Shown here: in pieces, positions 17,177-31,211 of the stretch
Numbering within the stretch: the first letter of the stretch is position 1
Layout: each line of letters opens with the position of its first letter
Assembly: GCA_044344255.1 (NCBI GenBank)
Contig: JBIJDH010000001.1
Coordinates: 352,001 to 416,000, forward strand
DNA: 64,000 nt
Direction of reading: 5' to 3'
Origin: Myxococcota bacterium
GTDB lineage: Bacteria > Myxococcota_A > UBA796 > UBA2385
Notes under the pieces: generated by a model
What the model was told of the DNA's origin: nothing
Seen by the model: the letters and a program-made list of their open reading frames with translations, nothing else
The model's database searches: none
Position numbers and translations under genes: made by a program

Positions 17177-17617
17177 TCAGGGCTGATCGGCGCGCCGCTC
17201 GTCAATCTCCACGAGGTTGACGAGGTTCCCCTCCGGGTCTTGCGCGGTGAGCAGGCGGGTGTTGCCCTCCTTCCGCGGCTGAAAGACCCGCATCCGATGC
17301 TGCTCCAAACGACGCTTCAGACCGGCCAGATCGGGCACAGCCAGCTCAAGGTAGAAGGACTGGCCGTCGCCGCGGTTGTAGCCCTGCACCTTGACCGCGT
17401 CGAGCAGCACTACCTTGACCGGCCCCGCCTGCAGCAGCAGGTGGTTTCGGCCGCGGCCGACGATCTTGAGCCCGAGCAGATCGACGTAAAATTCCCGAGC
17501 GACCGCGAAATTCCGACACGGGATCGTGACCCCTTTGAGGCGGGTCGCGCCCCGATCAGCCCGCTCGGCGGAGGTGGAGCCGGGGCGTGTGCGGGACCAG
17601 AAGCCGCGGGTGCTCAC
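17177..17617 (-). CDS. VOC/glyoxalase family protein
   Basis: AREFYVDLLGL, LAVPDL, DPEGNLVNL. Confidence 0.85.
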   Translation of the reverse strand: MSTRGFWSRTRPGSTSAERADRGATRLKGVTIPCRNFAVAREFYVDLLGLKIVGRGRNHLLLQAGPVKVVLLDAVKVQGYNRGDGQSFYLELAVPDLAGLKRRLEQHRMRVFQPRKEGNTRLLTAQDPEGNLVNLVEIDERRADQP

Positions 17618-17733
17618 AGGGTGTGGCTCACGGGGGGGTGGCTCACGGAGAGGTGGCGCACGGAGAGGTGGCTCACGGAGAGGGTGCTCACAGGGTGTGG
17701 CTCACGGGGTGACGCTCGGGGTGGCTCACGGGG
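17608..17733. repeat. Intergenic imperfect ~15-bp tandem array
   Basis: About nine GCTCAC-like cores, unit GGTGGCTCACGGAGA. Confidence 0.85.
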
Positions 17734-20282: not shown

Positions 20283-20581
20283 CGGTGAGTTGGGGTGGTG
20301 GTTGGTCGGAACCTCGACCGACACTCGGCCGCCCCCGAGACAGACTTCGAAGCGAAAAGGAATCGGAGCGAGGCGAACAGACCTCCACCTCAACAAAGGC
20401 GGCAAGGTGCGGACTGCTCGCGGCCCCAAGCTCAGTGCACGCGGTGCGTGCACTCTTGACCTGGACCCACCACCGTGAGCTCCCTCGACCGACGACCCGG
20501 GAAGCTGGCGCTCCCTCGCTCTGGGCGCATTCCAGCTGACTGGGACATTGAGCACGCGCGACGGTATGTGCGTACTGCAGC

Positions 20582-20855
20582 CTGTGCAGCGCGAGGCGGC
20601 CCACCTCCAGCGCATGCGCGAGGCTGACGGCCAACGACTGAGCCCCGAACTCGCGCTCAAGCTCCCTGCAGAGATCCTCGACGCTCCGCTGAAGGGTGAG
20701 CTTTCCGAGCGCCACCTTGATGACGAGCTCCCGGGGGCTCACGACGCTCAGGGGGAGCTCATCGGCCTCGAGGATCGCCTCCCTGGCGGTCGCCGAGAGG
20801 GCTTCGGACCGGAGAGCGCCCAGAGGGCGGCGTGGGTGTCGAGCACCAAACTCAA
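20582..20855 (-). pseudogene. Frameshifted, truncated VapC/PIN toxin
   Basis: TTG start, LVLDTHAALWALSG, frameshift near 20810, then SEALSATAREAI..SVVSPRELVIKVALGKL..LAHALEVGRLALH; DPFDR-type tail absent. Confidence 0.75.
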
Positions 20856-20956
20856 TGGGACCTGAAATCCAAACCCTCGATGGACAGGGGCTCATCGAAG
20901 TCGTCTCGAAGTACCGCGACGCCGGGCATCGTCCCGAAGCGCCGCCTCGGTGTGGT
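20852..20956 (-). pseudogene. C-terminal remnant of cognate antitoxin
   Basis: TPRRRFGTMPGVAVLRDDFDEPL; stop overlaps the PIN start (TTGA); no recognisable N-terminus. Confidence 0.6.
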
Positions 20957-21090
20957 CGCTGAGCCCTCCGCCGGCGGGGCGCCCCCCTCCGGCGCCGATG
21001 CGGCGCCACCTCCCCCCGCGAAACGCGGGAGGAGGATCTTCGGGGAGCAAGCCGAGCTCCCCGCCCCATCACCCAGCGGTGACGTTGGCC

Positions 21091-21344
21091 GCTCAGCCCC
21101 CGTCGGCCAGCCGGGTGCGCCGCCGCAGCCGGTACTCCCGCAGCACGTACTTCACGAAGGTGAGGTCATCGAGGAAGCGGGGGCCCATGCGCTTCGGCTC
21201 CAGGATGACCCGCCAGGTGATCTCCACGCCGCTCGTCAGCATCCAGCGCGGGGCGCGGGTGGTGAGGCCGGTGGCGATGTCGAAGGCGCCGCCCACGCCG
21301 AGCACGAAGGGGACCTTGAGCTCGGCCCGGTTGCGCTCCACGAA
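21091..21344 (-). repeat. Direct repeat copy A: detached 3' end of WecB/TagA/CpsF gene
   Basis: 254 bp matching 23843-24096 with 5 mismatches. Confidence 0.95.
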
Positions 21345-21447
21345 GGACAAGGTCGCCCACTTCACGCTGTACTTCACACCTCCGCCACGTGGCGTTACGG
21401 GAGGCGCAGGCGACCGGGTGTGAAGCCGGACGCCAGAGGGGGTGAAC

Positions 21448-22245
21448 ATGACCGACAGCCCGCTGACCGGCCCGCCGCCGAGTGAGGTGCCGCTACCACG
21501 GGCGCCGCTGGTGCGGGTGATCGCGCAGGTCCGCTTCCCGATCATCGCCTCGGTGGAGAAGCGCGACTTCATCGCGCAGTTCCAGGAGGCGATCCGGGAT
21601 AACTACCCGTTGATGCGTCAGGAGACGTCGAGCTCCCTCGTCAGCACACAAGGCCTGGGCCAGATCGAGGTGCGGTCCAACACCGTCTGGAGGTTCCACG
21701 ACCGGGAGCATCACTGGCGTGTCACGCTCGCCGCAGATTTCATCGCGCTGGAGGCGAACGCCTACAGGAGCCGCAGGGACTTCTTCGGTCGCTTCGAGCG
21801 CCTGATGGTGGCGCTCGCTGAGCATGTCCGCCCCAGCGCACTCGACCGCCTCGGGGTTCGGTACATCGACCGGCTCACGGACCAGGCGTTTGGCGAGCTG
21901 TCCTCGTTCATTCAACCCGCGCTGCTGGGCGCACTCGGAACAACGGTGGGCCGTCACGCGCGGCTCGCCCTCAGCGAGTACGTGTTCGACTTGCCCGACG
22001 AGCGTGGTCAGATGCGGGCACGTTGGGGAATCGTTCCAATGAACGCCACCATTGACCCGACCGCCATAGAGGCGATCGATAAGCCGAGCTGGATCCTCGA
22101 CCTCGACGCCTTCGTGCAGGAGGAGCGAACCTTCGAACCCACGCATGTGGCAAAGGAGGCGACCCGGCTGGCCGCGCGATGTTACGCCTTCTTCCGTTGG
22201 TCGGTGACGGAGCGGTTCCTTGAGTACTTTGCGGAGATGCCATGA
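21448..22245 (+). CDS. TIGR04255-family protein
   Basis: PLPRAPLVRVIAQVRFP, RLGVRYIDRL, WILDLDAF, FFRWSVT. Confidence 0.8.
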   Translation: MTDSPLTGPPPSEVPLPRAPLVRVIAQVRFPIIASVEKRDFIAQFQEAIRDNYPLMRQETSSSLVSTQGLGQIEVRSNTVWRFHDREHHWRVTLAADFIALEANAYRSRRDFFGRFERLMVALAEHVRPSALDRLGVRYIDRLTDQAFGELSSFIQPALLGALGTTVGRHARLALSEYVFDLPDERGQMRARWGIVPMNATIDPTAIEAIDKPSWILDLDAFVQEERTFEPTHVAKEATRLAARCYAFFRWSVTERFLEYFAEMP

Positions 22246-22952
22246 CCTCGATGGTGCATGAAGGCGTCCCGACGTACGGCACCTCCGCGATGGGCGCGCG
22301 GTCTACGCGCCCGGCCCTCATGGTGGTCTTGGTGACGGGGGCGATCACACTCCAGGCGACCACCGCCAGCCGTGAAGGTTGTCTCATCGGCGTTCAAGTG
22401 GTCTTCGACACCAGCGCGACGACCGCCGGGGGTGGGATCGCCGCCTCGGCCGCCGTGTCCGAGCCGGCCGAAGCGGACACGACGGCGCAGGCGCTCTCGA
22501 AGCTCCGTCGGGTATCCGGCTTGACCTGGGAGCAGCTCGGCCGTGTGTTCGCCGTGAGCCGTCGCGCGGTGCACTTCTGGGCGAGCGGAAGGCCCATGTC
22601 CGCCGAACACGAGGAGCACCTTCGACAAGCGCTCGCGCTGGTTCATCACCGTCCGGCGGGGGCCGATCAAGTACGCGGCGCCCTGCTCTCCATCGTCGAT
22701 GGACAGCAGGTGCTGGAGCTCCTCGCGTCGAAGCGCTTCGAGGAGGTGGAGGCTGCGCTGACGTCGAGCGTGGGCGCGAGACAGCGGCCGAATGCACCCA
22801 CACGGGCGCCGCTCTCCCCGTCAGCCAACGCCGCTCGGCGACCACCGCCGCCCGACGTGATGGCGGCGGGCGAGGACGAGTCCGCGCACACCCTCATGGG
22901 GCGCGGGCGAACGGCGCGCACCTCGCGGAGTCGCGGTCGTGGCCAGTCCTGA
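22242..22952 (+). CDS. Xre-like HTH protein with N- and C-terminal extensions
   Basis: LRRVSGLTWEQLGRVFAVSRRAVHFWASG; ATGA overlap with upstream gene. Confidence 0.75.
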   Translation: MTSMVHEGVPTYGTSAMGARSTRPALMVVLVTGAITLQATTASREGCLIGVQVVFDTSATTAGGGIAASAAVSEPAEADTTAQALSKLRRVSGLTWEQLGRVFAVSRRAVHFWASGRPMSAEHEEHLRQALALVHHRPAGADQVRGALLSIVDGQQVLELLASKRFEEVEAALTSSVGARQRPNAPTRAPLSPSANAARRPPPPDVMAAGEDESAHTLMGRGRTARTSRSRGRGQS

Positions 22953-23784
22953 CCACGGCTCCGCAGACATCGACCAGGCACTGGCGTCGTGGCGCCAGGG
23001 CGACAGCGTGCTGGGCCAGCACTGGTTCCTTGGGCGGGCGGATCCATCGCGACCCATCACAGACCAGAGCCGGGAGGACTGCGACCCCGAGACGGGGAAC
23101 TACGAGAGCGAGGTCCCCGGGTTCTCCGTCCTCACGCAGACCTGCGATCTGGTCCGGCGATGCGATCACCGTCCATTCGTCGAGATCGCGCCGCTCACCC
23201 ACCTCGACGAGGAGGAGTGGCGATCCGTGGTCCGGGGGCGCCAGCCGCGTTTCGCGTGCGTGCCGGCGCTGGCCCACCGGCGCCTCGCCGTCGACCTCGA
23301 TCGCGTGATGACCGTGGAGAAGGCGGTCGTTGCCACATGGGAGCGCGTCCCGGGCTGGTCTACGGACGATGAAGCTCGATCCTTCGCGCTCGCGCTGGCG
23401 CGCAAGCGGGCCCGCGCAGCGCTCCCCAATGACTTCGTCGAAGTGGCGCGCCCTCTCCAAGGCCGAATCGTCGAGAGGCATGACAAACAGAGCGAAGAGG
23501 GGCAGGCGCTGCGTTCCCTTCGCGAAATCCGCGTCCGCGCGGCCCCTTCCTGGGAAGCCGCCGATGTGGAGATCGACCTCCTCTTCATCCGAGACGAAAC
23601 AGCCACGGAATTCGCGGGCAAGACCTGGGCGGATTGGATGAGCCAGTGGCTGAAACGCGTTCCGGCTGGCGGGCGCTTTCGGCGCATCGATGGAGTTGTA
23701 CAGACACTCGACGACCTCAGCGCCCGAGACTACCTTGAGAGCGATCCCCTCGACCTCGGGTACCTGTCCGACCGCCCGCCGTAG
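22939..23784 (+). CDS. Hypothetical protein, N-terminal PemK/MazF-like pattern
   Basis: WRQGD, VLTQTCDL, FVEIAPLT, VDLDRVMTVEK; overlaps upstream stop by 14 bp. Confidence 0.7.
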   Translation: MASPDHGSADIDQALASWRQGDSVLGQHWFLGRADPSRPITDQSREDCDPETGNYESEVPGFSVLTQTCDLVRRCDHRPFVEIAPLTHLDEEEWRSVVRGRQPRFACVPALAHRRLAVDLDRVMTVEKAVVATWERVPGWSTDDEARSFALALARKRARAALPNDFVEVARPLQGRIVERHDKQSEEGQALRSLREIRVRAAPSWEAADVEIDLLFIRDETATEFAGKTWADWMSQWLKRVPAGGRFRRIDGVVQTLDDLSARDYLESDPLDLGYLSDRPP

Positions 23785-23842
23785 TGAGCGCCATGTCCCC
23801 GCCCCGCGCCCGATCCACGCATCAGGCCCGATGACGCAGGGA

Positions 23843-24096
23843 GCTCAGCCCCCGTCGGCCAGCCGGGTGCGCCGCCGCAGCCGGTACTCCCGCAGTACGT
23901 ACTTCACGAAGGTGAGGTCATCGAGGAAGCGGGGGCCCATGCGCTTCGGCTCCTGGATGACCCGCCAGGTGATCTCCACGCCGCTCTTCTGCATCCAGCG
24001 CGGGGCGCGGGTGGTGAGGCCGGCGGCGATGTCGAAGGCGCCGCCCACGCCGAGCACGAAGGGGACCTTGAGCTCGGCCCGGTTGCGCTCCACGAA
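23843..24096 (-). repeat. Direct repeat copy B (3' end of the intact glycosyltransferase)
   Basis: See copy A; offset 2752 bp. Confidence 0.95.
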
Positions 24097-24666
24097 CTCC
24101 TCCTTCTTGGGGGAGGAGATGGCGATGAAGAGCATGTCGGCCTTGGAGTCGTTGATCTGGCGGGTGATCTCCGCCTCGTCCTCGACCTTGAAGTAGCCGT
24201 TACGGCGGCCGACGATCTGGATGCCCGGATACTGCTTCTCGAAGTTGTCGGCCGCCTTCTGGACCGACTCCTCCTTCGCGCCGAGCATGAAGATGCGGTA
24301 GCCCTTCTTCTGCGAGACCGGCAGCATCTCGAACATGATGTCGACGCTCGGCACCCGCTCGGGCAGCGCGTCCTGGAAGAGGCGGCTGAACCAGATCACC
24401 GGCGTGCCGTCGGCGGTGATGAGGTCACAGGAGCGCACGATGCGGGCGAACTCGGGCTCCCGCTGCATCTTGAGGAGCTGATCGACGTTGACGCCGATGC
24501 TCTGGTAGACGCGGTCACGGCGCGCGATGTAGCCCTCGACCCGGCGGATGGCCTCGGCCATGTCGACGCGGTCGAAGGGGCAGCTGAACATCTGCACGCG
24601 GTCGAGCTTCTCGCCCGCGGCAGAGGTGTGGAGATACTCCCCAGCGGGGATCCCGGCGCCGTGCAT
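23845..24666 (-). CDS. WecB/TagA/CpsF glycosyltransferase
   Basis: ADGTPVIW, SSPKKEEF, GVGGAFD, RAPRWMQKSG, QEPKRM; RBS GGAG. Confidence 0.93.
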   Translation of the reverse strand: MHGAGIPAGEYLHTSAAGEKLDRVQMFSCPFDRVDMAEAIRRVEGYIARRDRVYQSIGVNVDQLLKMQREPEFARIVRSCDLITADGTPVIWFSRLFQDALPERVPSVDIMFEMLPVSQKKGYRIFMLGAKEESVQKAADNFEKQYPGIQIVGRRNGYFKVEDEAEITRQINDSKADMLFIAISSPKKEEFVERNRAELKVPFVLGVGGAFDIAAGLTTRAPRWMQKSGVEITWRVIQEPKRMGPRFLDDLTFVKYVLREYRLRRRTRLADGG

Positions 24667-24674
24667 GGTCGCTC

Positions 24675-25724
24675 CTAAGCCTGCTCGGCCTTGACCGTCA
24701 TCTCGCGCACCGCGCTCGAGGCGCCGGGGCCGAAGCTGGCGGCGTGATCGATGCGGTTCCAGTTGTCGCGGAACCAGCGGATGTTGGCCTCGAGGCCGAC
24801 CTCGAAGGGCGTGTTCGGGTTGTAGCCGATGAGCTTGCCCGCCTTCTCGACGCTGGCGCAGAGGCGACGCTTGGTGTCCCACTTGCGGCGGGCGGCCCAG
24901 GAGATGCCCGCCTTGTTGCCGACGGCCTCGTTGATCATCTCGGCGAGCTCGCCGATGCGCGTCTCCCGGCCGGAGGCGAGGTTGAACTCCTCACCGATGG
25001 CCTCGGGGAGCACGCCCGAGCGGAGCAGGCCGTCGTTGATGTCGCCCACGAAGGTGAAGTCGCGGGTCTCGGAGCCGTCGCCCGTGAGCGGGAGCGGGAG
25101 GCCCTTCATCGCCCAGTAGATGAAGTTGGGGATGACGTTGCGGTACTGCCCCGGCACTTCGCCCGGCCCGTAGCTGTTGAAGAAGCGGGCCTTCACCACC
25201 GGCACATTGTAGTGGTGGTGGAAGAAGTTGCCGTAGAGCTCTCCCAGCATCTTGGTGATCTGGTAGGGCGTCGTGAGGTGCATGCTCATGAACTCCTCCC
25301 GCAGCGGGAGGGGAGCGGCGCTGCCGTAGATCGAGCAGCCGCTCGAGGCGTACACGAAGCGCTCGACCGGGTGGAGCGTGCTGTACTCGAGGAGCCGCAG
25401 CGTGCCCATGCCGTTGACCATGAGGTCGTTCTCGGGGTGATCCACCGAGTTCTGGTTCGCGAAGAAGGCGGCGAGGTGGAAGACGATGTGCGGCTTCTCG
25501 AAGAAGCAGCGCTTGAGCTTCACCTCGTCGAGGATATCGCCCTCGACGAACAGCACGTTCGGGAGGCTCGGCACGTTCCAGCGCGGCGAGCTCACGAGGT
25601 TGTCGAGGATGATGACCTTGGCCGCGATCGGGGAGAGTGCGCGGACGAGGTTTGAGCCGATGGCGCCAGCGCCGCCCGTGACGAGCACGGTCTTGCCGGC
25701 GTATTGGGAGAGGTGATCGGACAT
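24675..25724 (-). CDS. NAD-dependent epimerase/dehydratase
   Basis: VTGGAGAIG, YQITK, RFFNSYGP, TRDFTFV. Confidence 0.93.
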   Translation of the reverse strand: MSDHLSQYAGKTVLVTGGAGAIGSNLVRALSPIAAKVIILDNLVSSPRWNVPSLPNVLFVEGDILDEVKLKRCFFEKPHIVFHLAAFFANQNSVDHPENDLMVNGMGTLRLLEYSTLHPVERFVYASSGCSIYGSAAPLPLREEFMSMHLTTPYQITKMLGELYGNFFHHHYNVPVVKARFFNSYGPGEVPGQYRNVIPNFIYWAMKGLPLPLTGDGSETRDFTFVGDINDGLLRSGVLPEAIGEEFNLASGRETRIGELAEMINEAVGNKAGISWAARRKWDTKRRLCASVEKAGKLIGYNPNTPFEVGLEANIRWFRDNWNRIDHAASFGPGASSAVREMTVKAEQA

Positions 25725-25876
25725 GGGCGTCTCTCTCGAGGTGGAAGACGAGGGGGTGCTGGGTAGACCGGGATACGCACTGGGCCGTCCCCGGGATCTC
25801 ACCGGCAGCGACCACGGTCCGCTCCTCCGATGAGCCCACGCCGCCTCATGCCCCGCTCCACCCGGCTCGGCACGTC

Positions 25877-26911
25877 ATGGAATGCAAATCCTTGATCAGC
25901 CCCCGAATCGTCACGCCCCCCTTCCGGGGCCCTCTCTTCGTCGTCGGGATGCCGAGGTCGGGCACCAAGCTGCTGCGCGATCTCCTCAACGGACACAGCC
26001 AGATCGGCATCCCCGCCGCAGAGACGGAGTTCCTCCCCGACTGGTGCCGCCGCTGGCCCGAGTTCGGAGATCTGTCAGACCGCGCGACCTTCCAGCGCTT
26101 TTATGACCGGATGCAGAAGAGCGCATACTTTGTGTACCTCCGCGAAGAGCAGCGCTACGAGACCGACCCCCAGCGCTGGTACGAGGCCTGCGCCGGTTGG
26201 GGGGTGGCCGAGGTCTTCGAGGCCCTGATCCGGGAGGACGCCCATTGTCCCTTGGGATCGACGCGCATCTGGGGTGACAAGTCCCCCTCCTACATCGCCC
26301 AGGTGCCCCTGCTCGACCGCCTCTGGCCCTCGGCGCGGGTGGTTCACATCGTCCGCGACGTGCGCGACTACGCGCTCTCCATCCACCACGCCTGGGGCAA
26401 GGACATGCTCCGTGCCGCGCAGCGCTGGGTGGATCGGGTGGAGCAGGTGGCGCAGGAGGGCGCCGCCCTCGGCCCGCACCGCTTCCAAGAGCTGCGGTAT
26501 GAGGACCTCCTCACCGATCCGGCGGTCGCGCTCGACAAGCTCAGCGGCTTCCTGGACATCCCCTTCGAACCCAGCATGACGAAGCTCCAACGCGCCTCGG
26601 AGAACAAGGGGGATGCTAAGGGTGAGATCGGGATCAAGGCGGATAACAGCGGGAAGTTCGGGGCCCGGATGGAGCCCGGGCTCCGCCGCGCCATCGAGGC
26701 CATCGCCGCCCCGACCCTCGCTCGGTACGGCTATGAGGGCGTCCCCTCGACCCCCGCCTCGCGGGTGCCCGCCTGGCGGATGATGGCGGGGCAAGCCGCC
26801 GACGGCGCGGCCCTCGTGCGCTCGGAGGCCGACGAGCGGGGCTGGCTCGGCGCCCTCCGCTTCCGGTGGTCGGTCTTCGCCGAGACGGGGGCCTGGGAGC
26901 GGCTCCGATAA
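25877..26911 (+). CDS. Sulfotransferase
   Basis: GMPRSGTKLL, WGDKSP, HIVRDVRD, RYEDLL. Confidence 0.9.
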   Translation: MECKSLISPRIVTPPFRGPLFVVGMPRSGTKLLRDLLNGHSQIGIPAAETEFLPDWCRRWPEFGDLSDRATFQRFYDRMQKSAYFVYLREEQRYETDPQRWYEACAGWGVAEVFEALIREDAHCPLGSTRIWGDKSPSYIAQVPLLDRLWPSARVVHIVRDVRDYALSIHHAWGKDMLRAAQRWVDRVEQVAQEGAALGPHRFQELRYEDLLTDPAVALDKLSGFLDIPFEPSMTKLQRASENKGDAKGEIGIKADNSGKFGARMEPGLRRAIEAIAAPTLARYGYEGVPSTPASRVPAWRMMAGQAADGAALVRSEADERGWLGALRFRWSVFAETGAWERLR

Positions 26912-26951
26912 GGCCGCGGAGCCCCTCTCCCCGCGCGAGCCGGGCCGTCGG

Positions 26952-27851
26952 TCAGGCCTTCCAGCGCGAGAGGTCGCGGTCGAGCAGGCGCTCCAGGCGC
27001 TCCACCTCGGGCCGGAGCTCCGCCTGGAGGCGGGCCCGCAAGGCGGGATCGAGGGGGGCCCGCTCAAGGTGGCGGGAGTTCAGGCGCCGCACCGATCTCC
27101 GAAGGCGCACCCGGAGATCCGACGGAAAGAGGCCCTTGAGGGGCTCCGGGACGTGGGCGAGCAGCCGCCGGAGCCCGTCGCTGCGCACGGCTTTAGCGGT
27201 GTTGACCTCGCCCTCGGGCGTCGGGGCGGCGTCGAGGCCGAGCCAGTCGAGGAGGCCCGCCCAGGTGGCGGGGAGCGAAGACCGCAGGTCGTCCTGGAGC
27301 AGCACGCGCACACGGTCACGGCCGAAGACGGTGAAGTACCGCTCCACCTGCTCAGCATACGCGGCGACCCGCCGGTAGAGCAGGCCCTCGGGGAGCGGGG
27401 TGCGGGGCGGGAGCTGCTCCCCTCGGCGTCGAGCGGGCTCCGCGGCCAGCGCGAGCGCGAAGTCGCCGATGTCTTCGTCGTGGACGCTGTTGTAGCGGAG
27501 CTGTCCCCACAGCGCATACATCATCGAGACGGGCTCCCGGATGAGCACGATCACCCGCGCATCCGGGTTGAAGGCATGGATCTCGACGGCCGCCCGCTCC
27601 GAGTAGAGGTACCAGACGCTGGAGTCTCCGAGGCGGCGGTGCGCCACCGAGGCCCCCGCGAAGTGAGCGAGGTAGGCGGCACGGTCGGCGCAGGGCCGGT
27701 GCCGGAGCCCGAGATCGCTCCCGAAGTAGTGGAGGTCCTTCCGGGCCGCCATGAAGACCTGGGGGTGGCCCTCGAGGTAGCGCGTGAGCGCCGTGGTGCC
27801 GCACTTCGGGGCGCCGACGAGGAAGAGGTCCGGGAGCCGATGCTCGGCCAT
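26952..27851 (-). CDS. Sulfotransferase
   Basis: GAPKCGTTAL..HP, SVWYLYS, LIREPV. Confidence 0.9.
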   Translation of the reverse strand: MAEHRLPDLFLVGAPKCGTTALTRYLEGHPQVFMAARKDLHYFGSDLGLRHRPCADRAAYLAHFAGASVAHRRLGDSSVWYLYSERAAVEIHAFNPDARVIVLIREPVSMMYALWGQLRYNSVHDEDIGDFALALAAEPARRRGEQLPPRTPLPEGLLYRRVAAYAEQVERYFTVFGRDRVRVLLQDDLRSSLPATWAGLLDWLGLDAAPTPEGEVNTAKAVRSDGLRRLLAHVPEPLKGLFPSDLRVRLRRSVRRLNSRHLERAPLDPALRARLQAELRPEVERLERLLDRDLSRWKA

Positions 27852-27875
27852 GGTCGCGTCCGGGGAAGCGGAGGG

Positions 27876-28337
27876 TCAGCGGGTCCGGGCGAGCATCAGG
27901 CCGAGGAGGATCGCCAGCAGCACCATGCCCCCGTAGACCAGCCACATGAAGCGGCGATCCCGGAGGGTGGGATCGGGCATGGAGTCCCCCCTCCGCTTTC
28001 GGCGCTGGGTGCGCTGGGCGTACTCCTCGGGAGAGAGCCAGACCTCCCGGCCGGTGGAGTCGATGTAGACCTTGTAGCCCTTCTCCTCATAAAATTGCGC
28101 TCGAACACCCTCGCGGATCGAGAAGAGCTCAGAGTGTCGGGCCGCTTGACGGCGCTCCTGGGTCTGCCGCTTGCGGGAGCGGCGCTTCTCGATCGTCTCC
28201 TGGCGACGCGCGTGATCCTCCTCGAGCTGCGCTCGGAAGGCCCGCTCGGCCTCCTCCCGCTCGCCGGGAGACAGGCCGAGCGGGACGGTCGGCAGGTCCG
28301 AGGTGGTCTCCTGCGATTCGGCGGGCGACTTGGGCAT
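27876..28337 (-). CDS. Hypothetical charged-helical protein with C-terminal TM
   Basis: Glu/Arg-rich helix, hydrophobic C-terminal anchor; start uncertain. Confidence 0.6.
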   Translation of the reverse strand: MPKSPAESQETTSDLPTVPLGLSPGEREEAERAFRAQLEEDHARRQETIEKRRSRKRQTQERRQAARHSELFSIREGVRAQFYEEKGYKVYIDSTGREVWLSPEEYAQRTQRRKRRGDSMPDPTLRDRRFMWLVYGGMVLLAILLGLMLARTR

Positions 28338-28468
28338 CCGAGCTCCGAGGGCGCCGTCCCGTGGGGGCCGGCCCCGCCTCATAACCCTGCCCTCTGTTTC
28401 GAGGGGCCGCAACGACCCGCGTTTGACGGCGACGGGCCCCCGGGTGACTCTCCTCGTTCGGAGGGCCG

Positions 28469-29179
28469 ATGATCCCAGAGCTCCTGACCAGCGCCCGGGT
28501 CCGACTGCAGCGCCGCTTCGCGGACCTCGACATTGACGAGAACCGCCGCGCCCGGGAGGACCGCGAGGTGCTCACCCAGCGCATCTCCACGCTGGCCGCC
28601 TGGCCTAGGGAGGCGCCGAAGATCGCCCGGCGCTTCCGCGACGACTACCTCGACTACCTCAACCGCGTGGGCCACCCCAACCACGCCGCCTCCCTCGAGC
28701 TCATCGCCACCCTCTGGCTGATGGCCGAAGCGCTCCAGCCGAAGCGGATGGTCGACCTCGGCTCCGGCTTCACCTCGTTCATCTTCCGAACCTGGGCGGC
28801 CGAGCACCCGGGCGTCGAGGTCTGGTCGGTGGACGACTCCCCCGAGTGGCTGGAGCGCACCCGCGCTTGGCTCGGCGAGAAGCGGGTCTCCACCGAGAAC
28901 CTCGCCGTGTGGGAGACCTTCATCCAGGCCCCTCCCGCCCCCTTTGACCTCGTGCTCCACGACATGGGGATGATGGACACCCGCGCCCGCACGCTCAACC
29001 AGGCGATCAGCCTCGCCCGCAAAGGCGGCTACGTGATCCTCGACGACGTGCACAAGGATGAGTACCGCCGCTACGCGACCGGCGAGCTCGAGCGGGCGAA
29101 CATCCAGGCGCTGAGCCTCAAGGCCTTCACGAGAGACCCGATCTTCCGCTACGCCTGGCTGGCGCTGCCCACGCTGTAG
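28469..29179 (+). CDS. Class I SAM-dependent methyltransferase
   Basis: VDLGSGFTS, FDLVLHD, GGYVILDD. Confidence 0.85.
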   Translation: MIPELLTSARVRLQRRFADLDIDENRRAREDREVLTQRISTLAAWPREAPKIARRFRDDYLDYLNRVGHPNHAASLELIATLWLMAEALQPKRMVDLGSGFTSFIFRTWAAEHPGVEVWSVDDSPEWLERTRAWLGEKRVSTENLAVWETFIQAPPAPFDLVLHDMGMMDTRARTLNQAISLARKGGYVILDDVHKDEYRRYATGELERANIQALSLKAFTRDPIFRYAWLALPTL

Positions 29180-29205
29180 GCGCCCCAGCGCCGCCGGTCA
29201 GCCGG

Positions 29206-30129
29206 TCAGCGAGCGGCCTTCCAGGCCGGCAGCGGGCGGTCGAGCAGCGCCTCCAGGGCCTCGACCCGCGGGCGGAGCTCGGCGGTGAGCCGCGCCTTGG
29301 TCTCGGCGGCCATCGGCGGACGGTCCTCAAAACGAAGGTTCACCCTTCGGAGCACGCGCAGACCGAGGCGAGCGCCCGGGAAGGGCGCGGCGTCGACCCC
29401 CTCGAGCACCCTTCGGGGGCCGGGGCGGATCATCCAGTCGCGGAGCGCGCCGACGCGCACGCCGCGGTTGCTGTTGCGGGAGCGTTCGCTCGCGTCCATC
29501 ACGGCGTCCATCCCTGGGAATTCCGTGCGCACACCGAGGAACTGGAGCAGCCGACGGTACTGTTCGCGGGGGTCCTTCTGTAGATCATCGAGCAGGATCA
29601 CATGCACGCGGTCCCGGCCGAGGGCGTCGAAGTACCGACCGACCTGCGCGGCGTAGTCGGTGTTCTTCATGTAGTGCAGGGCGCAAGCCGGGATCGAGCT
29701 CGGCGGGAGGCGCCGCCCGGCGAGGCGGTCGGGCTCGGCGGCGAGGGCCTCTTCGAAGGAGGCGATGTCCTCGTCGCCCGAGAACACGAGGTGGCTGTGC
29801 AGGGAGTGCAGCCAGCTCGTCGGGTTGCGCAGAAGCATCACCACCCGGAGATCGCCGGAGAAGGCGCGCAGCTCGCCGGCGGCCCGCTCACTGATGAGCG
29901 ACCAGGTCGAGGCCTCGCCCACCCGCCGGTGGGCCGCCTTCGCCCCCCGGAAGAAGGAGAGGTAGTTCTCGAGGGTGCGGGGCGGGTCGTGGTAGCGCAG
30001 ATCCGCACCGAAGTAGTGCAGCTCCTTCTTCGCCATGAAGATGTCGGGGTGACCAGAGAGGTAGGAGTCGAGCAAGCCGGAGCCGCTGCGCGGGTGGCCG
30101 ACGAAGAGGAAGTCAGGGCGGCGGCTCAC
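29206..30129 (-). CDS. Sulfotransferase (paralog of 26952-27851)
   Basis: [29 protein letters not shown]. Confidence 0.9.
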   Translation of the reverse strand: MSRRPDFLFVGHPRSGSGLLDSYLSGHPDIFMAKKELHYFGADLRYHDPPRTLENYLSFFRGAKAAHRRVGEASTWSLISERAAGELRAFSGDLRVVMLLRNPTSWLHSLHSHLVFSGDEDIASFEEALAAEPDRLAGRRLPPSSIPACALHYMKNTDYAAQVGRYFDALGRDRVHVILLDDLQKDPREQYRRLLQFLGVRTEFPGMDAVMDASERSRNSNRGVRVGALRDWMIRPGPRRVLEGVDAAPFPGARLGLRVLRRVNLRFEDRPPMAAETKARLTAELRPRVEALEALLDRPLPAWKAAR

Positions 30130-31211
30130 GGGCGGGCTCCCGGTTGGCGGACACCGTCCCAGAGCGAACGGTGCTGGAGGATGATCACGTCCAACCCAAA
30201 GCGCGCCTCGGCGAGGCGGCGCCCCGCGGCGCCCTGGGCGCGGCGGAGGGAAGCGTCTCCGAGGAGGAGGGCGAGCTGGTCGGCCAGCGCGTCGCGATCG
30301 CCGGGCTCGACCAGGGCGCCCGTCTGGCCCGCCTCCACGGACTCCGGGATGCCCGCGATGGGGGTCGAGACCACCGGCAAGCCCATCGCCATCGCCTCGA
30401 GGATGCTCATCGGCAGGGCCTCGTGGTAGCTCGGGAGGCAGAAGACGTCGGCGCCCGCGTACTCGGCGAGGCGGGCGGCCCCGCTCACCCAGCCCGGCAC
30501 GCTCACGTGGGCCGCGAGTCCGCGGCGGGCCACGGTGTCGCGGAGGCGCTCGACCTCGCCGTTGCCGCAGAAACGAAACTGGGCCTCCGGCACGCGGCGG
30601 AGCACGCGGGGGACGGCGGCCAGAAGATCCCAGGTGCCCTTCCGGTCGCCGATCTCCCCCATGAAGACAACGGTGGGCGCGGGGTGGGCCGAACGATCGG
30701 GGGGCGTGAAATTGGCCAGATCCACGGGGTTGTAGAGGACCACCAGCGGGAAGCCGGGGCCGACCAGGGCCTCGATCACGCCAGCCATCGACCGGGAGAG
30801 CACCACCACCGCCGCCGCCCGGCTGAACATCCAGCGCATCATGCGGCGGTGGACGGGGGAGCCCTCGATGAAGCCCGCCAGATCGGGGATGTGCAGGTGA
30901 ACGATCACCGGGCGGCCGGTGGCGTGCGCCTGCTCGAACCAGACCAGCTTCCGGTAGAAGGAGGCGAAGTAAGACAGGTGGATGTGGAAGACGTCCGGGC
31001 GCCAGCCCCGCGCGAGCTGCCCGGCGAAGATGAGCTCCCGGCGCACCATGCCGGCGGCCTTCCGCCAGCGCGGCCCATTCTTCATGGTGCCGAAGTAGCG
31101 CACCTCGGCGCCCACCCGCGGGGCCGCCTCGACGAGGAGGCGCGCGACCGTGGAGATGCCGCCCTGGGCGTCCAGGTCGGGGCCGATCATGGCGACGGAG
31201 AGGGGGGTCAC
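30126..31211 (-). CDS. GT4 glycosyltransferase
   Basis: RKG, FCLPSYHEALPMSILEAMAMG. Confidence 0.93.
   Translation of the reverse strand: MTPLSVAMIGPDLDAQGGISTVARLLVEAAPRVGAEVRYFGTMKNGPRWRKAAGMVRRELIFAGQLARGWRPDVFHIHLSYFASFYRKLVWFEQAHATGRPVIVHLHIPDLAGFIEGSPVHRRMMRWMFSRAAAVVVLSRSMAGVIEALVGPGFPLVVLYNPVDLANFTPPDRSAHPAPTVVFMGEIGDRKGTWDLLAAVPRVLRRVPEAQFRFCGNGEVERLRDTVARRGLAAHVSVPGWVSGAARLAEYAGADVFCLPSYHEALPMSILEAMAMGLPVVSTPIAGIPESVEAGQTGALVEPGDRDALADQLALLLGDASLRRAQGAAGRRLAEARFGLDVIILQHRSLWDGVRQPGARP

Follow-up and report, generated by a model that had tools for sequence, protein, structure and literature searches.

A TIGR04255 gene heads a candidate helper-antitoxin-toxin cassette in a myxobacterial genome

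Three overlapping genes form a conserved unit

We analyzed a 64,000-nucleotide stretch of a Myxococcota bacterium genome (assembly GCA_044344255.1, contig JBIJDH010000001.1, positions 352,001 to 416,000; hereafter, the window), focusing on three genes headed by a member of the TIGR04255 family. A preliminary description had read this trio as a candidate tripartite toxin-antitoxin (TA) or anti-phage system, with gene 1 as a sensor/chaperone by analogy with the toxin-antitoxin-chaperone (TAC) systems. The coordinates of the open reading frames (ORFs) agree with its account of three co-oriented, overlapping genes, with an ATGA overlap at the gene 1/gene 2 junction and a 14-bp overlap between genes 2 and 3:

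21448-22245, plus strand: gene 1, TIGR04255 family, 265 aa, ATG start; proposed helper of the antitoxin (chaperone/sensor or modifying enzyme)
22242-22952, plus strand: gene 2, 236 aa, in which a leader precedes an Xre-like helix-turn-helix (HTH), and a helical domain and tail follow; putative antitoxin that also represses its own operon
22939-23784, plus strand: gene 3, 281 aa, GTG start, MazF/PemK/CcdB fold plus an alpha/beta domain; proposed toxin

The G+C content at third codon positions is 0.84, 0.82 and 0.80 in genes 1, 2 and 3, respectively, versus 0.90-0.96 in eight neighboring genes, in line with the earlier remark that A/T-ending codons are commoner here than in the neighbors. Gene 1 is indeed a TIGR04255 protein, matching positions 2-249 of the 252 in the family model (E 1.7e-41; 142.7 bits, NCBIfam cut-off 30). 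Genes 2 and 3 had no match above cut-off in NCBIfam, Pfam or PADLOC, and a search of the trio against PADLOC-DB 2.0 (2023 library) likewise gave none, the only hit being REase_II on gene 3 (E 0.027).

Homologous loci were picked for their resemblance to gene 3 (at least about 50% identity) from GTDB (the best 80 of 277 loci) and from metagenomes (80 fetched of 393), and therefore describe one clade. The gene 1-gene 2-gene 3 order is kept in 78 of the 80 GTDB loci, across many phyla, the exceptions being one locus at a contig end and one without gene 1 (L068), and the trio is present in 60/60 metagenome loci having at least 1 kb of upstream sequence. The unit is thus kept together elsewhere, as the preliminary description would have it, and shows the three-gene operon of TAC systems, with a candidate toxin, a candidate antitoxin and a dedicated third component. 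Hosts on record include cyanobacteria, myxobacteria, Gemmatimonadota, Gammaproteobacteria, Chloroflexota, Deinococcota, Acidobacteriota and Planctomycetes, and a word-indexed search returned 1667 relatives of gene 3 and 1435 of gene 1. The gene 1 stop lies within an NTGA overlap in 77/78 loci, and gene 2 is intact in 75. A conserved fourth gene was rejected: the flanks are not conserved, their 556 ORFs falling into 466 clusters, the largest of which occurs in 7 loci. On this evidence, the trio is very likely a tripartite TA unit. Separately, one gene of the trio carries a frameshift or internal stop in L015, L026, L034, L063, L077 and L099; such broken trios fit fast-turnover accessory modules, although errors of assembly may account for some.

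A modular cassette with TIGR04255 as its constant lead gene

A neighborhood survey of TIGR04255 homologs, one of the checks proposed with the preliminary description, was performed in three taxon samples, in which the family occurred in 34/201, 44/301 (a tally that includes three unpublished genomes) and 16/151 genomes. Of 79 loci returned, 2 duplicates, 2 unpublished and 1 mis-parsed locus were dropped, leaving 74, in which ORFs were chosen heuristically. An adjacent second gene was found in 72/74 loci (28 with a -4 overlap) and a third gene in 65. More than half of the third genes (34) belong to the gene 3 family, while the others comprise 4 PIN, 3 HNH, 1 RES, 1 YhaV, 1 weak HEPN, 1 papain-like by eye, 4 unassigned and 16 with an Arg...Ser...His pattern that, by eye, may be ADP-ribosyltransferase (ART)-like. 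The second genes are comparably diverse, with two Xre clades, HEAT repeats, a PrlF fragment (which precedes the YhaV gene and bears an 85-aa N-terminal extension), a PDC-M32A-like domain and small helical proteins.

What most second genes share is a Ser/Thr-rich start. Ser+Thr makes up 0.194 of their first 70 aa, versus 0.112 in 385 flank ORFs, and a fraction of at least 0.17 was reached by 47/62 second genes versus 48/385 flank ORFs; without the two Xre clades the value is still 0.18 (n=40). In a quick tree of 70 TIGR04255 proteins, the window clade forms one supported group and the other toxin classes interleave, with 17 changes of toxin label (minimum 6), several of these labels having been assigned by eye or from the second gene. 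Conversely, among 22 gene 3 hits that were not used in model building, TIGR04255 lies directly upstream in 19 (coordinates compared by hand), the three exceptions being one with a divergent TIGR04255-like gene by eye and two with small antitoxin-like partners. TIGR04255 is therefore the constant first gene of a modular cassette, in which the second gene usually has a Ser/Thr-rich leader and the third varies. The family is large, at about 22,800 clusters at 50% identity.

Several loci in this survey deserve mention in their own right. L250 (G459) has the same three-gene layout with a divergent TIGR04255-like gene that falls below the threshold of the family hidden Markov model (HMM), so the family is wider than its model. 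In L111, L144, L153, L160, L171 and L179, the second gene has a domain in common with the C-terminal part of the PADLOC candidate PDC-M32A, and the unnamed Arg...Ser...His family that follows it is likely a new toxin family. PDB sequence searches with profiles A1, A4, A5 and A6 returned only E >0.1.

Gene 2 combines a Ser/Thr-rich leader with a putative autorepressor

The leader with which gene 2 begins is poorly conserved, has a median length of 79 aa and a Ser+Thr content of 24%, and contains a short hydrophobic core between GTSS- and TxxG-like motifs ([GSTA]T[ST][SAT] in 65/69 and TxxG in 57/69). The leader is followed by a highly conserved Xre-like HTH at about aa 85-130, a helical domain and a conserved C-terminal tail. 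HTH_3 was matched by 66/76 members (best E 2.8e-6), mostly below curated cut-offs, PF20432 by 52/76 at E up to 0.1 (best 2.3e-5), and the gene 2 of the window matched NF007481 at E 0.013. The helical domain, by eye, presumably resembles the C-terminal domains of Xre/MbcA/ParS proteins; the corresponding Pfam domain had no match in gene 2 members. Gene 2 had been described as an Xre-HTH protein with a hydrophobic N-terminal extension, of which the HTH and the extension stand, whereas the extension does not form a membrane helix: 19-residue hydropathy reaches at least 1.6 in only 5/69 members, and we rejected a membrane anchor on this basis.

Upstream of gene 1 lies a conserved direct repeat, with the following elements:

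21360-21378, plus strand: operator/-35 element CTTCACA-N5-CTTCACA, period 12, with one mismatch here; conserved, and the probable binding site of the gene 2 HTH
21396-21401, plus strand: position of the -10 box as judged from homologous sites, 17 bp after the repeat, here TACGGG with the last T missing
21419-21425, minus strand: extra inverted operator half-site (TGTGAAG on the plus strand), seen in the sequence and in only 3/93 upstream regions

After de-duplication of 127 upstream regions to 93, the repeat CTTCACA-N5-CTTCACA was found in 88/93 of them, as compared to 0/85 downstream controls and none in shuffles, and the copy at 21360-21378 is the single site in the whole 8.2-Mb genome. As TAnnnT follows the second CTTCACA copy at exactly 17 bp in 47/88 sites, this copy doubles as a -35 box. 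In the unbiased set of TIGR04255 loci, the operator occurs in 9/11 loci of clade I, 0/12 of clade II (which has a different Xre) and 0/50 others. The operator thus follows the gene 2 clade and not TIGR04255, which makes gene 2 the likely autorepressor; judging from this distribution, we regard repression of the operon by gene 2 as highly probable. Gene 1 is disfavored as the operator's reader, with the operator absent from all 62 TIGR04255 loci outside clade I, and a type III (RNA antitoxin) reading of the repeat was rejected, its unit being 7 nt and lying upstream of the -10 position. L068, the locus without gene 1, has no operator, and its gene 2 carries a helical domain in place of the leader.

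A second clade shows the TIGR04255/Xre/MazF-plus-C-domain layout (L099, L104, L106, L127, L132, L138 and L139, with L141, L145, L149, L155, L157 and L158 as further members), and has another operator candidate, GTGTAA, in 8/12 upstream regions.

Gene 3 adopts a MazF/PemK-like fold with a probably atypical active site

The preliminary description noted motifs of gene 3 that parallel those of PemK/MazF RNases and called for a structure search. The AlphaFold2 model of gene 3 (mean predicted local distance difference test, pLDDT, 88) places a MazF/PemK/CcdB fold at aa 14-161, with a Foldseek match to MazF at E 3.5e-4 and VIA matches to 8zws (Z 9.8, root-mean-square deviation [rmsd] 2.9, 102 residues aligned), 4mzm (Z 9.4) and CcdB (Z 8.8). 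The motif parallels held up in a profile-profile alignment: a profile of 28 divergent gene 3 members matched a PemK profile of 22 sequences with a probability of 54-58% (E 1.2e-4 to 1e-5), QGD aligning with RGD, PLT with PLT and DRVMTVEK with EQIRVIDK. Gene 3 is nonetheless a member of the fold that lies outside PF02452, which 0/89 family members match at E up to 0.5; an ESM Atlas search with gene 3 returned only unnamed clusters. Support for a toxin role comes from L252, where a gene 3 member stands behind a Phd/YefM-like antitoxin (E 1.3e-4, under cut-off) in a two-gene pair without TIGR04255.

The accessible text of PMC10893535 gives the catalytic Arg and Thr of MazF as essential. In gene 3 the columns aligned to them, as mapped by profile alignment and not by structural superposition, are variable (Arg at position 60 in 21/89 members, Val at position 87 in 74/89; P60 and T87 in the window), so an RNase working by the MazF mechanism, as initially suggested, is not borne out. 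Could gene 3 then be no RNase at all? It could instead be a CcdB-like protein poison or use a new Cys/Asp chemistry, its C-terminal domain sensing or binding a nucleotide or a partner, in a scheme otherwise compatible with the explanation that we favor below. Consistent with this, the CcdB score ties with the MazF matches, and the canonical Arg/Thr give way to other conserved residues: Q20, C69, D70 and R159 are invariant across 28 proteins, and E82, R155, K156 and R157 are also conserved in clade I. On the other hand, besides CcdB and MafI, nine of the ten best structural rows are MazF/PemK/Kid RNases, ToxN/CptN are also among the structural matches, and the exchangeable third-gene partners are largely nucleases. 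The type III toxins ToxN and CptN are RNases with other catalytic residues. We therefore hold a non-RNase toxin to be unlikely, if far from negligible; gene 3 is probably a MazF/PemK-fold toxin that, judging from its modeled fold, would most likely act on RNA through a non-canonical active site.

The remainder of gene 3 (aa 162-278) is an alpha/beta domain with weak matches to minimal nucleotidyltransferases (Z 5.6-6.6; 2rff 6.6, 8xeh 6.3, 1no5 5.7; modeled within full-length gene 3), to which the unrelated MafI2 (Z 7.0) and CDF C-terminal domains (Z 5.7) compare in score. Positions 200-213 lack the conserved G/S and D pair of the GS and DxD motifs, and no profile signal was obtained against 5 minimal nucleotidyltransferase sequences. 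Many gene 3 family members do without this domain.

The trio is an accessory insert in a polysaccharide locus

In the window, the trio resides in an islet of 2752 bp that consists of a short promoter region and the three genes, without an integrase, and is surrounded by the following features:

21077-21344, no strand assigned: left copy of a 268-nt direct repeat, a duplicate of the wecB/tagA 3' end; islet boundary
23829-24096, no strand assigned: right copy of the 268-nt direct repeat, within the intact wecB/tagA gene end; other islet boundary
23845-24666, minus strand: WecB/TagA/CpsF glycosyltransferase, insertion-site gene, context only (TIGR00696 E 7.7e-39, PF03808 E 4.7e-57)
20533-21049, minus strand: probable decayed vapBC-type pair, outside the islet, context only (by eye, three-frame translation)

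The bracketing direct repeat had been noted in the preliminary description; its two copies are 96% identical, with the 3' end of the WecB/TagA gene as the duplicated source, and differ at 10 positions, so the insertion event is not recent. In an independent public DNA run, a contig (21315-23872) spans the trio at a depth of 12.8, versus 12 in the flanks and 22.9, about twofold, in the repeat, excluding an assembly artefact. The closest wecB ortholog found (L083, 81% at the nucleotide level) is followed by an unrelated ORF instead of the trio, and this, together with the bridged islet, identifies the trio as a real accessory insert in a polysaccharide locus. Other wecB orthologs, among the matches listed, had no trio match in their 1.5-kb flanks. 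No joint of an excised or empty form was seen in the contigs of 3 DNA runs, where contigs drop rare variants. In one RNA run, contigs cover wecB and the epimerase gene and leave the trio uncovered, which, being seen in contigs, says nothing about expression.

Of the decayed vapBC pair reported earlier, an antitoxin-like piece (20855-21049) and frameshifted PIN-like pieces below it are visible by eye; Pfam offers at best DUF2281 at E 0.054 for the antitoxin piece and no match for the two toxin pieces. A GC-rich palindromic element of ~60 nt (20980-21040), with many genome copies and clustered arrays on contigs C15 and C43, sits within the antitoxin-like piece and may have broken it. Further observations concern the surroundings: a glycosyltransferase 3' end is an unusual insertion target for an integrase-less islet (21077-24096); short tandem 15-nt repeats (GTGGCTCACGGAGAG-like) lie at 17608-17733, upstream of a sulfatase gene; and the polysaccharide locus (23845-31211) comprises WecB, an epimerase, glycosyltransferases and several ORFs that are sulfotransferase-like by eye, which suggests a sulfated surface glycan.

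Homologous trios in mobile DNA and a possible anti-phage role

Elsewhere, homologous trios were found on conjugative or mobilizable plasmids, beside an integrase or relaxase, on viral contigs and in a prophage-like region, and a temperate phage has one between its integrase and portal genes. In temperate phage L123 (4959-6989), TIGR04255 is joined by a helical second gene and by a third that is His...Cys papain-like by eye; this trio lies between the integrase and portal genes and is followed by a separate toxin-antidote pair, and L115 is of the same type. Among the nearest neighbors of the trios (139 of 146 scanned), 31 of 74 with a Pfam annotation carry TA, restriction, nuclease or mobile-element domains, a count made without a control. 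In the accessible tables of DefensePredictor (PMC13092281), at least 8 TIGR04255 proteins are predicted to be novel defense genes with log-odds of 4.7-9.3 (Table S4) and TIGR04255 is a positively weighted neighbor (Table S3); its name is absent from the other readable tables, including that of the tested units.

In a literature search that left subscription journals largely outside, we found no main-text description of TIGR04255, CHP04255 or IPR026349, and concept searches with the same scope found no helper-antitoxin-toxin system with TIGR04255. The family does not occur in the supplement of PMC13069673, and in the portions accessible, PMC10440598 and PMC12429752 do not describe the system and PMC12274833 has no relevant passage.

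The cassette could also be a selfish addiction or stress module that stabilizes mobile DNA without an anti-phage role. Trios on plasmids, beside transposases and beside housekeeping genes would suit such a module, as would the lack of a PADLOC match and a 2.75-kb islet whose bordering repeats could recombine and so remove it. Yet the rapid swapping of toxins, the location in prophage accessory slots and the DefensePredictor scores fit defense, and the characterized tripartite TAC systems, as reported in the accessible parts of PMC11618068 and 10.1101/2024.02.24.581848, defend against phage. A purely selfish role thus seems doubtful to us, and an anti-phage role, by analogy with TAC systems, somewhat favored.

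Gene 1 and a proposed mechanism

The gene 1 model (pLDDT 91) is a curved antiparallel beta sheet with helices behind. Across 70 TIGR04255 proteins (9-50% identity), the residues R29, Y106, R134, R138, Y139, N/D141, D218, D220, H/R242 and F249 are conserved. An ESM Atlas search returned only TIGR04255-named clusters and one AAA-fused cluster, a side finding in which a TIGR04255-like fold (template modeling score 0.78) is joined to an AAA_17/18 domain in 436-aa proteins, mostly from Bacteroidota. The best match in BFVD is an unnamed viral protein (E 2.9e-8). The second half of gene 1 shows, by DSSP, a SecB-like order of elements; an internal two-fold repeat was not detected at the profile level (probability 2.8%).

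We propose that the trio is a horizontally spread helper-antitoxin-toxin cassette whose mode of action resembles that of a TAC system with the gene order mirrored, an explanation to which, as a whole, we assign a probability of roughly 0.5. It builds on the integrity of the operon, the folds, the conservation of the operator, the common leader, and the way in which toxin-antitoxin pairs change while the first gene stays. In the proposed scheme, gene 3 would be the toxin; gene 2 would neutralize it and repress the operon from the direct-repeat operator overlapping the -35 box. The Ser/Thr-rich leader would render gene 2 unstable or insoluble unless bound by gene 1, which is made just before gene 2 by translational coupling and would then bind the leader. 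A phage protein competing for gene 1, or a shut-off of host expression, would then release the toxin and abort the infection, a step that we model on HigBAC and CmdTAC. In the TAC systems described in PMC11618068 and 10.1101/2024.02.24.581848, as far as their accessible text goes, the chaperone stabilizes the antitoxin by way of an additional disordered element and is itself competed for by phage proteins. Toxicity, neutralization, helper-leader contact and phage triggering are the inferred steps of our scheme. Considering its parts, it is fairly probable that gene 1 acts through the gene 2 leader, and action by binding rather than by catalysis is close to an even call.

Several findings weigh against this explanation. 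The search for a chaperone gave no SecB signal: SecB is not among the top 50 structure-search rows for gene 1, the halves of the gene 1 profile (70 sequences) match 29 canonical SecB sequences, a set without the divergent TAC chaperones, with a probability of at most 0.1%, and Pfam, including the SecB family PF02556, gave no match at E up to 1. The TAC analogy of the preliminary description is strengthened by the family-wide pattern; a SecB-like chaperone role for gene 1 found no support in these searches. The only full-length fold match of gene 1 is to guanido-kinase/McsB catalytic domains, and its conserved Arg and Asp residues would fit catalysis no less than binding. Aromatics at regular intervals, as in ChAD, the C-terminal disordered antitoxin element (10.1101/2024.02.24.581848, accessible text), are missing from the leader, whose aromatic fraction is 0.070 versus 0.072 in the rest of the protein. 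Furthermore, the loss of the leader along with gene 1 is a single case (L068), the -10 box of the window (TACGGG) is degenerate, with no promoter found there by a consensus scan, and the MazF catalytic columns of gene 3 vary. The 16 ART-like third genes were recognized by eye only, with no Pfam, NCBIfam or PDB match. Finally, with the neighbor count lacking a control, many neighbors are housekeeping genes, and those of the window are polysaccharide genes.

Some of these findings would suit an alternative in which gene 1, as an enzyme with the guanido-kinase/glutamine-synthetase type of fold, covalently modifies, for example phosphorylates, the Ser/Thr-rich leader, thereby licensing the antitoxin or marking it for degradation; the switch would be thrown in the course of infection, through nucleotide depletion or through inhibition. 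Only the catalytic domains of guanido kinases and McsB match over the whole gene 1 model (Z 7-8, up to 8.0; 171-191 residues aligned, rmsd 3.7-4.9), R29, R134, R138, N/D141, D218, D220 and H/R242 are among its conserved residues, and the common feature of the leaders is their Ser/Thr motifs rather than aromatic residues. However, Z scores below about 8 are common by chance in this structure library, and the N-terminal domain of spermine synthase, TATA-binding protein (TBP)-like folds and other curved-sheet folds score similarly over part of gene 1. Moreover, gene 1 has no Pfam match to PF00217, the NEEDH motif is not in the TIGR04255 consensus, no profile similarity was found to the single guanido kinase used as a template, and, by eye, no RxGLRY motif is present in L250, a divergent homolog found in this three-gene architecture. 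We hold this main rival to be improbable, and likewise its widest form, a TIGR04255 class of SecB-unrelated controllers in which guanido-kinase-fold enzymes modify a portable Ser/Thr-rich leader on unrelated antitoxins, making modification-gated anti-phage switches of MazF-like, PIN, HNH, RES, YhaV and ART-like pairs.

Still less credible is a gene 1 that ignores the leader and serves as a co-antitoxin, co-repressor or phage sensor contacting toxin or DNA, with the leader as a low-complexity degron or linker: Rep-like and TBP-like nucleic-acid-binding folds are among its weak structural matches, and translational coupling shows stoichiometry and not a binding partner, but the toxins behind TIGR04255 have unrelated folds, making one conserved toxin-binding surface unlikely, the leader is what the cassettes have in common, and the operator tracks the gene 2 clade.

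Comparison with known systems

The helper-antitoxin-toxin cassette that we favor shares features with several known systems. In some TIGR04255 loci, the second gene matches the C-terminal domain of PDC-M32A, from a PADLOC candidate system (L153, E 1.5e-10), and one third gene matches PDC-M32B (L179, E 2.1e-5); PDC-M32 has no match to the window genes or to 23 TIGR04255 proteins, and is itself only a candidate. In type II Gabija, a validated anti-phage system, the effector GajC likewise has a divergent MazF-like domain, which unlike gene 3 is split by a 5-helix insertion and accompanied by a UvrD helicase, whereas the trio has no helicase (PMC13069673, accessible text). HEPN-MNT (type VII) systems come to mind through the weak alignment of gene 3 aa 162-278 to minimal nucleotidyltransferases; in gene 3, however, this domain has no conserved GS or DxD and is fused to the toxin. 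Xre-RES pairs (with Xre/MbcA/ParS antitoxins) share the Xre-like HTH followed by a small helical domain, and the TIGR04255 locus L119 has a RES toxin, but gene 2 has a MazF-fold partner and a long leader.

MazEF, PemIK and CcdAB resemble the trio in the fold and motif order of the toxin's N-terminal domain, in the upstream position of the antitoxin gene and in an operator over the promoter. They differ in that gene 3 lacks the conserved catalytic Arg/Thr and carries a fused C-terminal domain, in that a third gene appears obligatory, and in that the antitoxin is an Xre-like HTH protein. The antitoxins of MazEF, PemIK and CcdAB are of the AbrB or ribbon-helix-helix types. Should our explanation hold, the very large TIGR04255 family of unknown function would gain a testable job. 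TIGR04255 would also serve as a marker in the search for toxins not yet described: of the 65 third genes, about 50 have no Pfam name, the divergent MazF-fold family among them. If portable, the leader/helper pair would offer a new conditional-stability tag, and the CTTCACA operator, conserved across phyla, a ready-made orthogonal repressor site. Standing before many different toxin-antidote pairs, TIGR04255 may represent a novel type of switch that controls anti-virus defense.

The closest comparison is with the TAC systems HigBAC, MqsRAC and CmdTAC, which likewise have three coupled genes, an exchangeable toxin-antitoxin pair with a constant third protein, and a low-complexity antitoxin extension adjoining the helper gene, and are found in prophages and mobile DNA. 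Here, in contrast, the helper (240-265 aa) has no detectable relation to SecB, the order is helper-antitoxin-toxin, the extension sits at the N-terminus and is rich in Ser/Thr, instead of lying at the C-terminus with aromatics spaced along it, and the toxin has a MazF fold with an extra domain. As the accessible parts of PMC11618068 and 10.1101/2024.02.24.581848 describe TAC systems by SecB-like chaperones and C-terminal addiction tags, and our tests for the SecB family and a C-terminal ChAD were negative, we did not file the TIGR04255 trio as a TAC system. If our explanation is correct, it would represent a second, apparently independent helper-gated solution, with a different fold, the opposite gene order and an N-terminal tag, and such gating would have evolved more than once.

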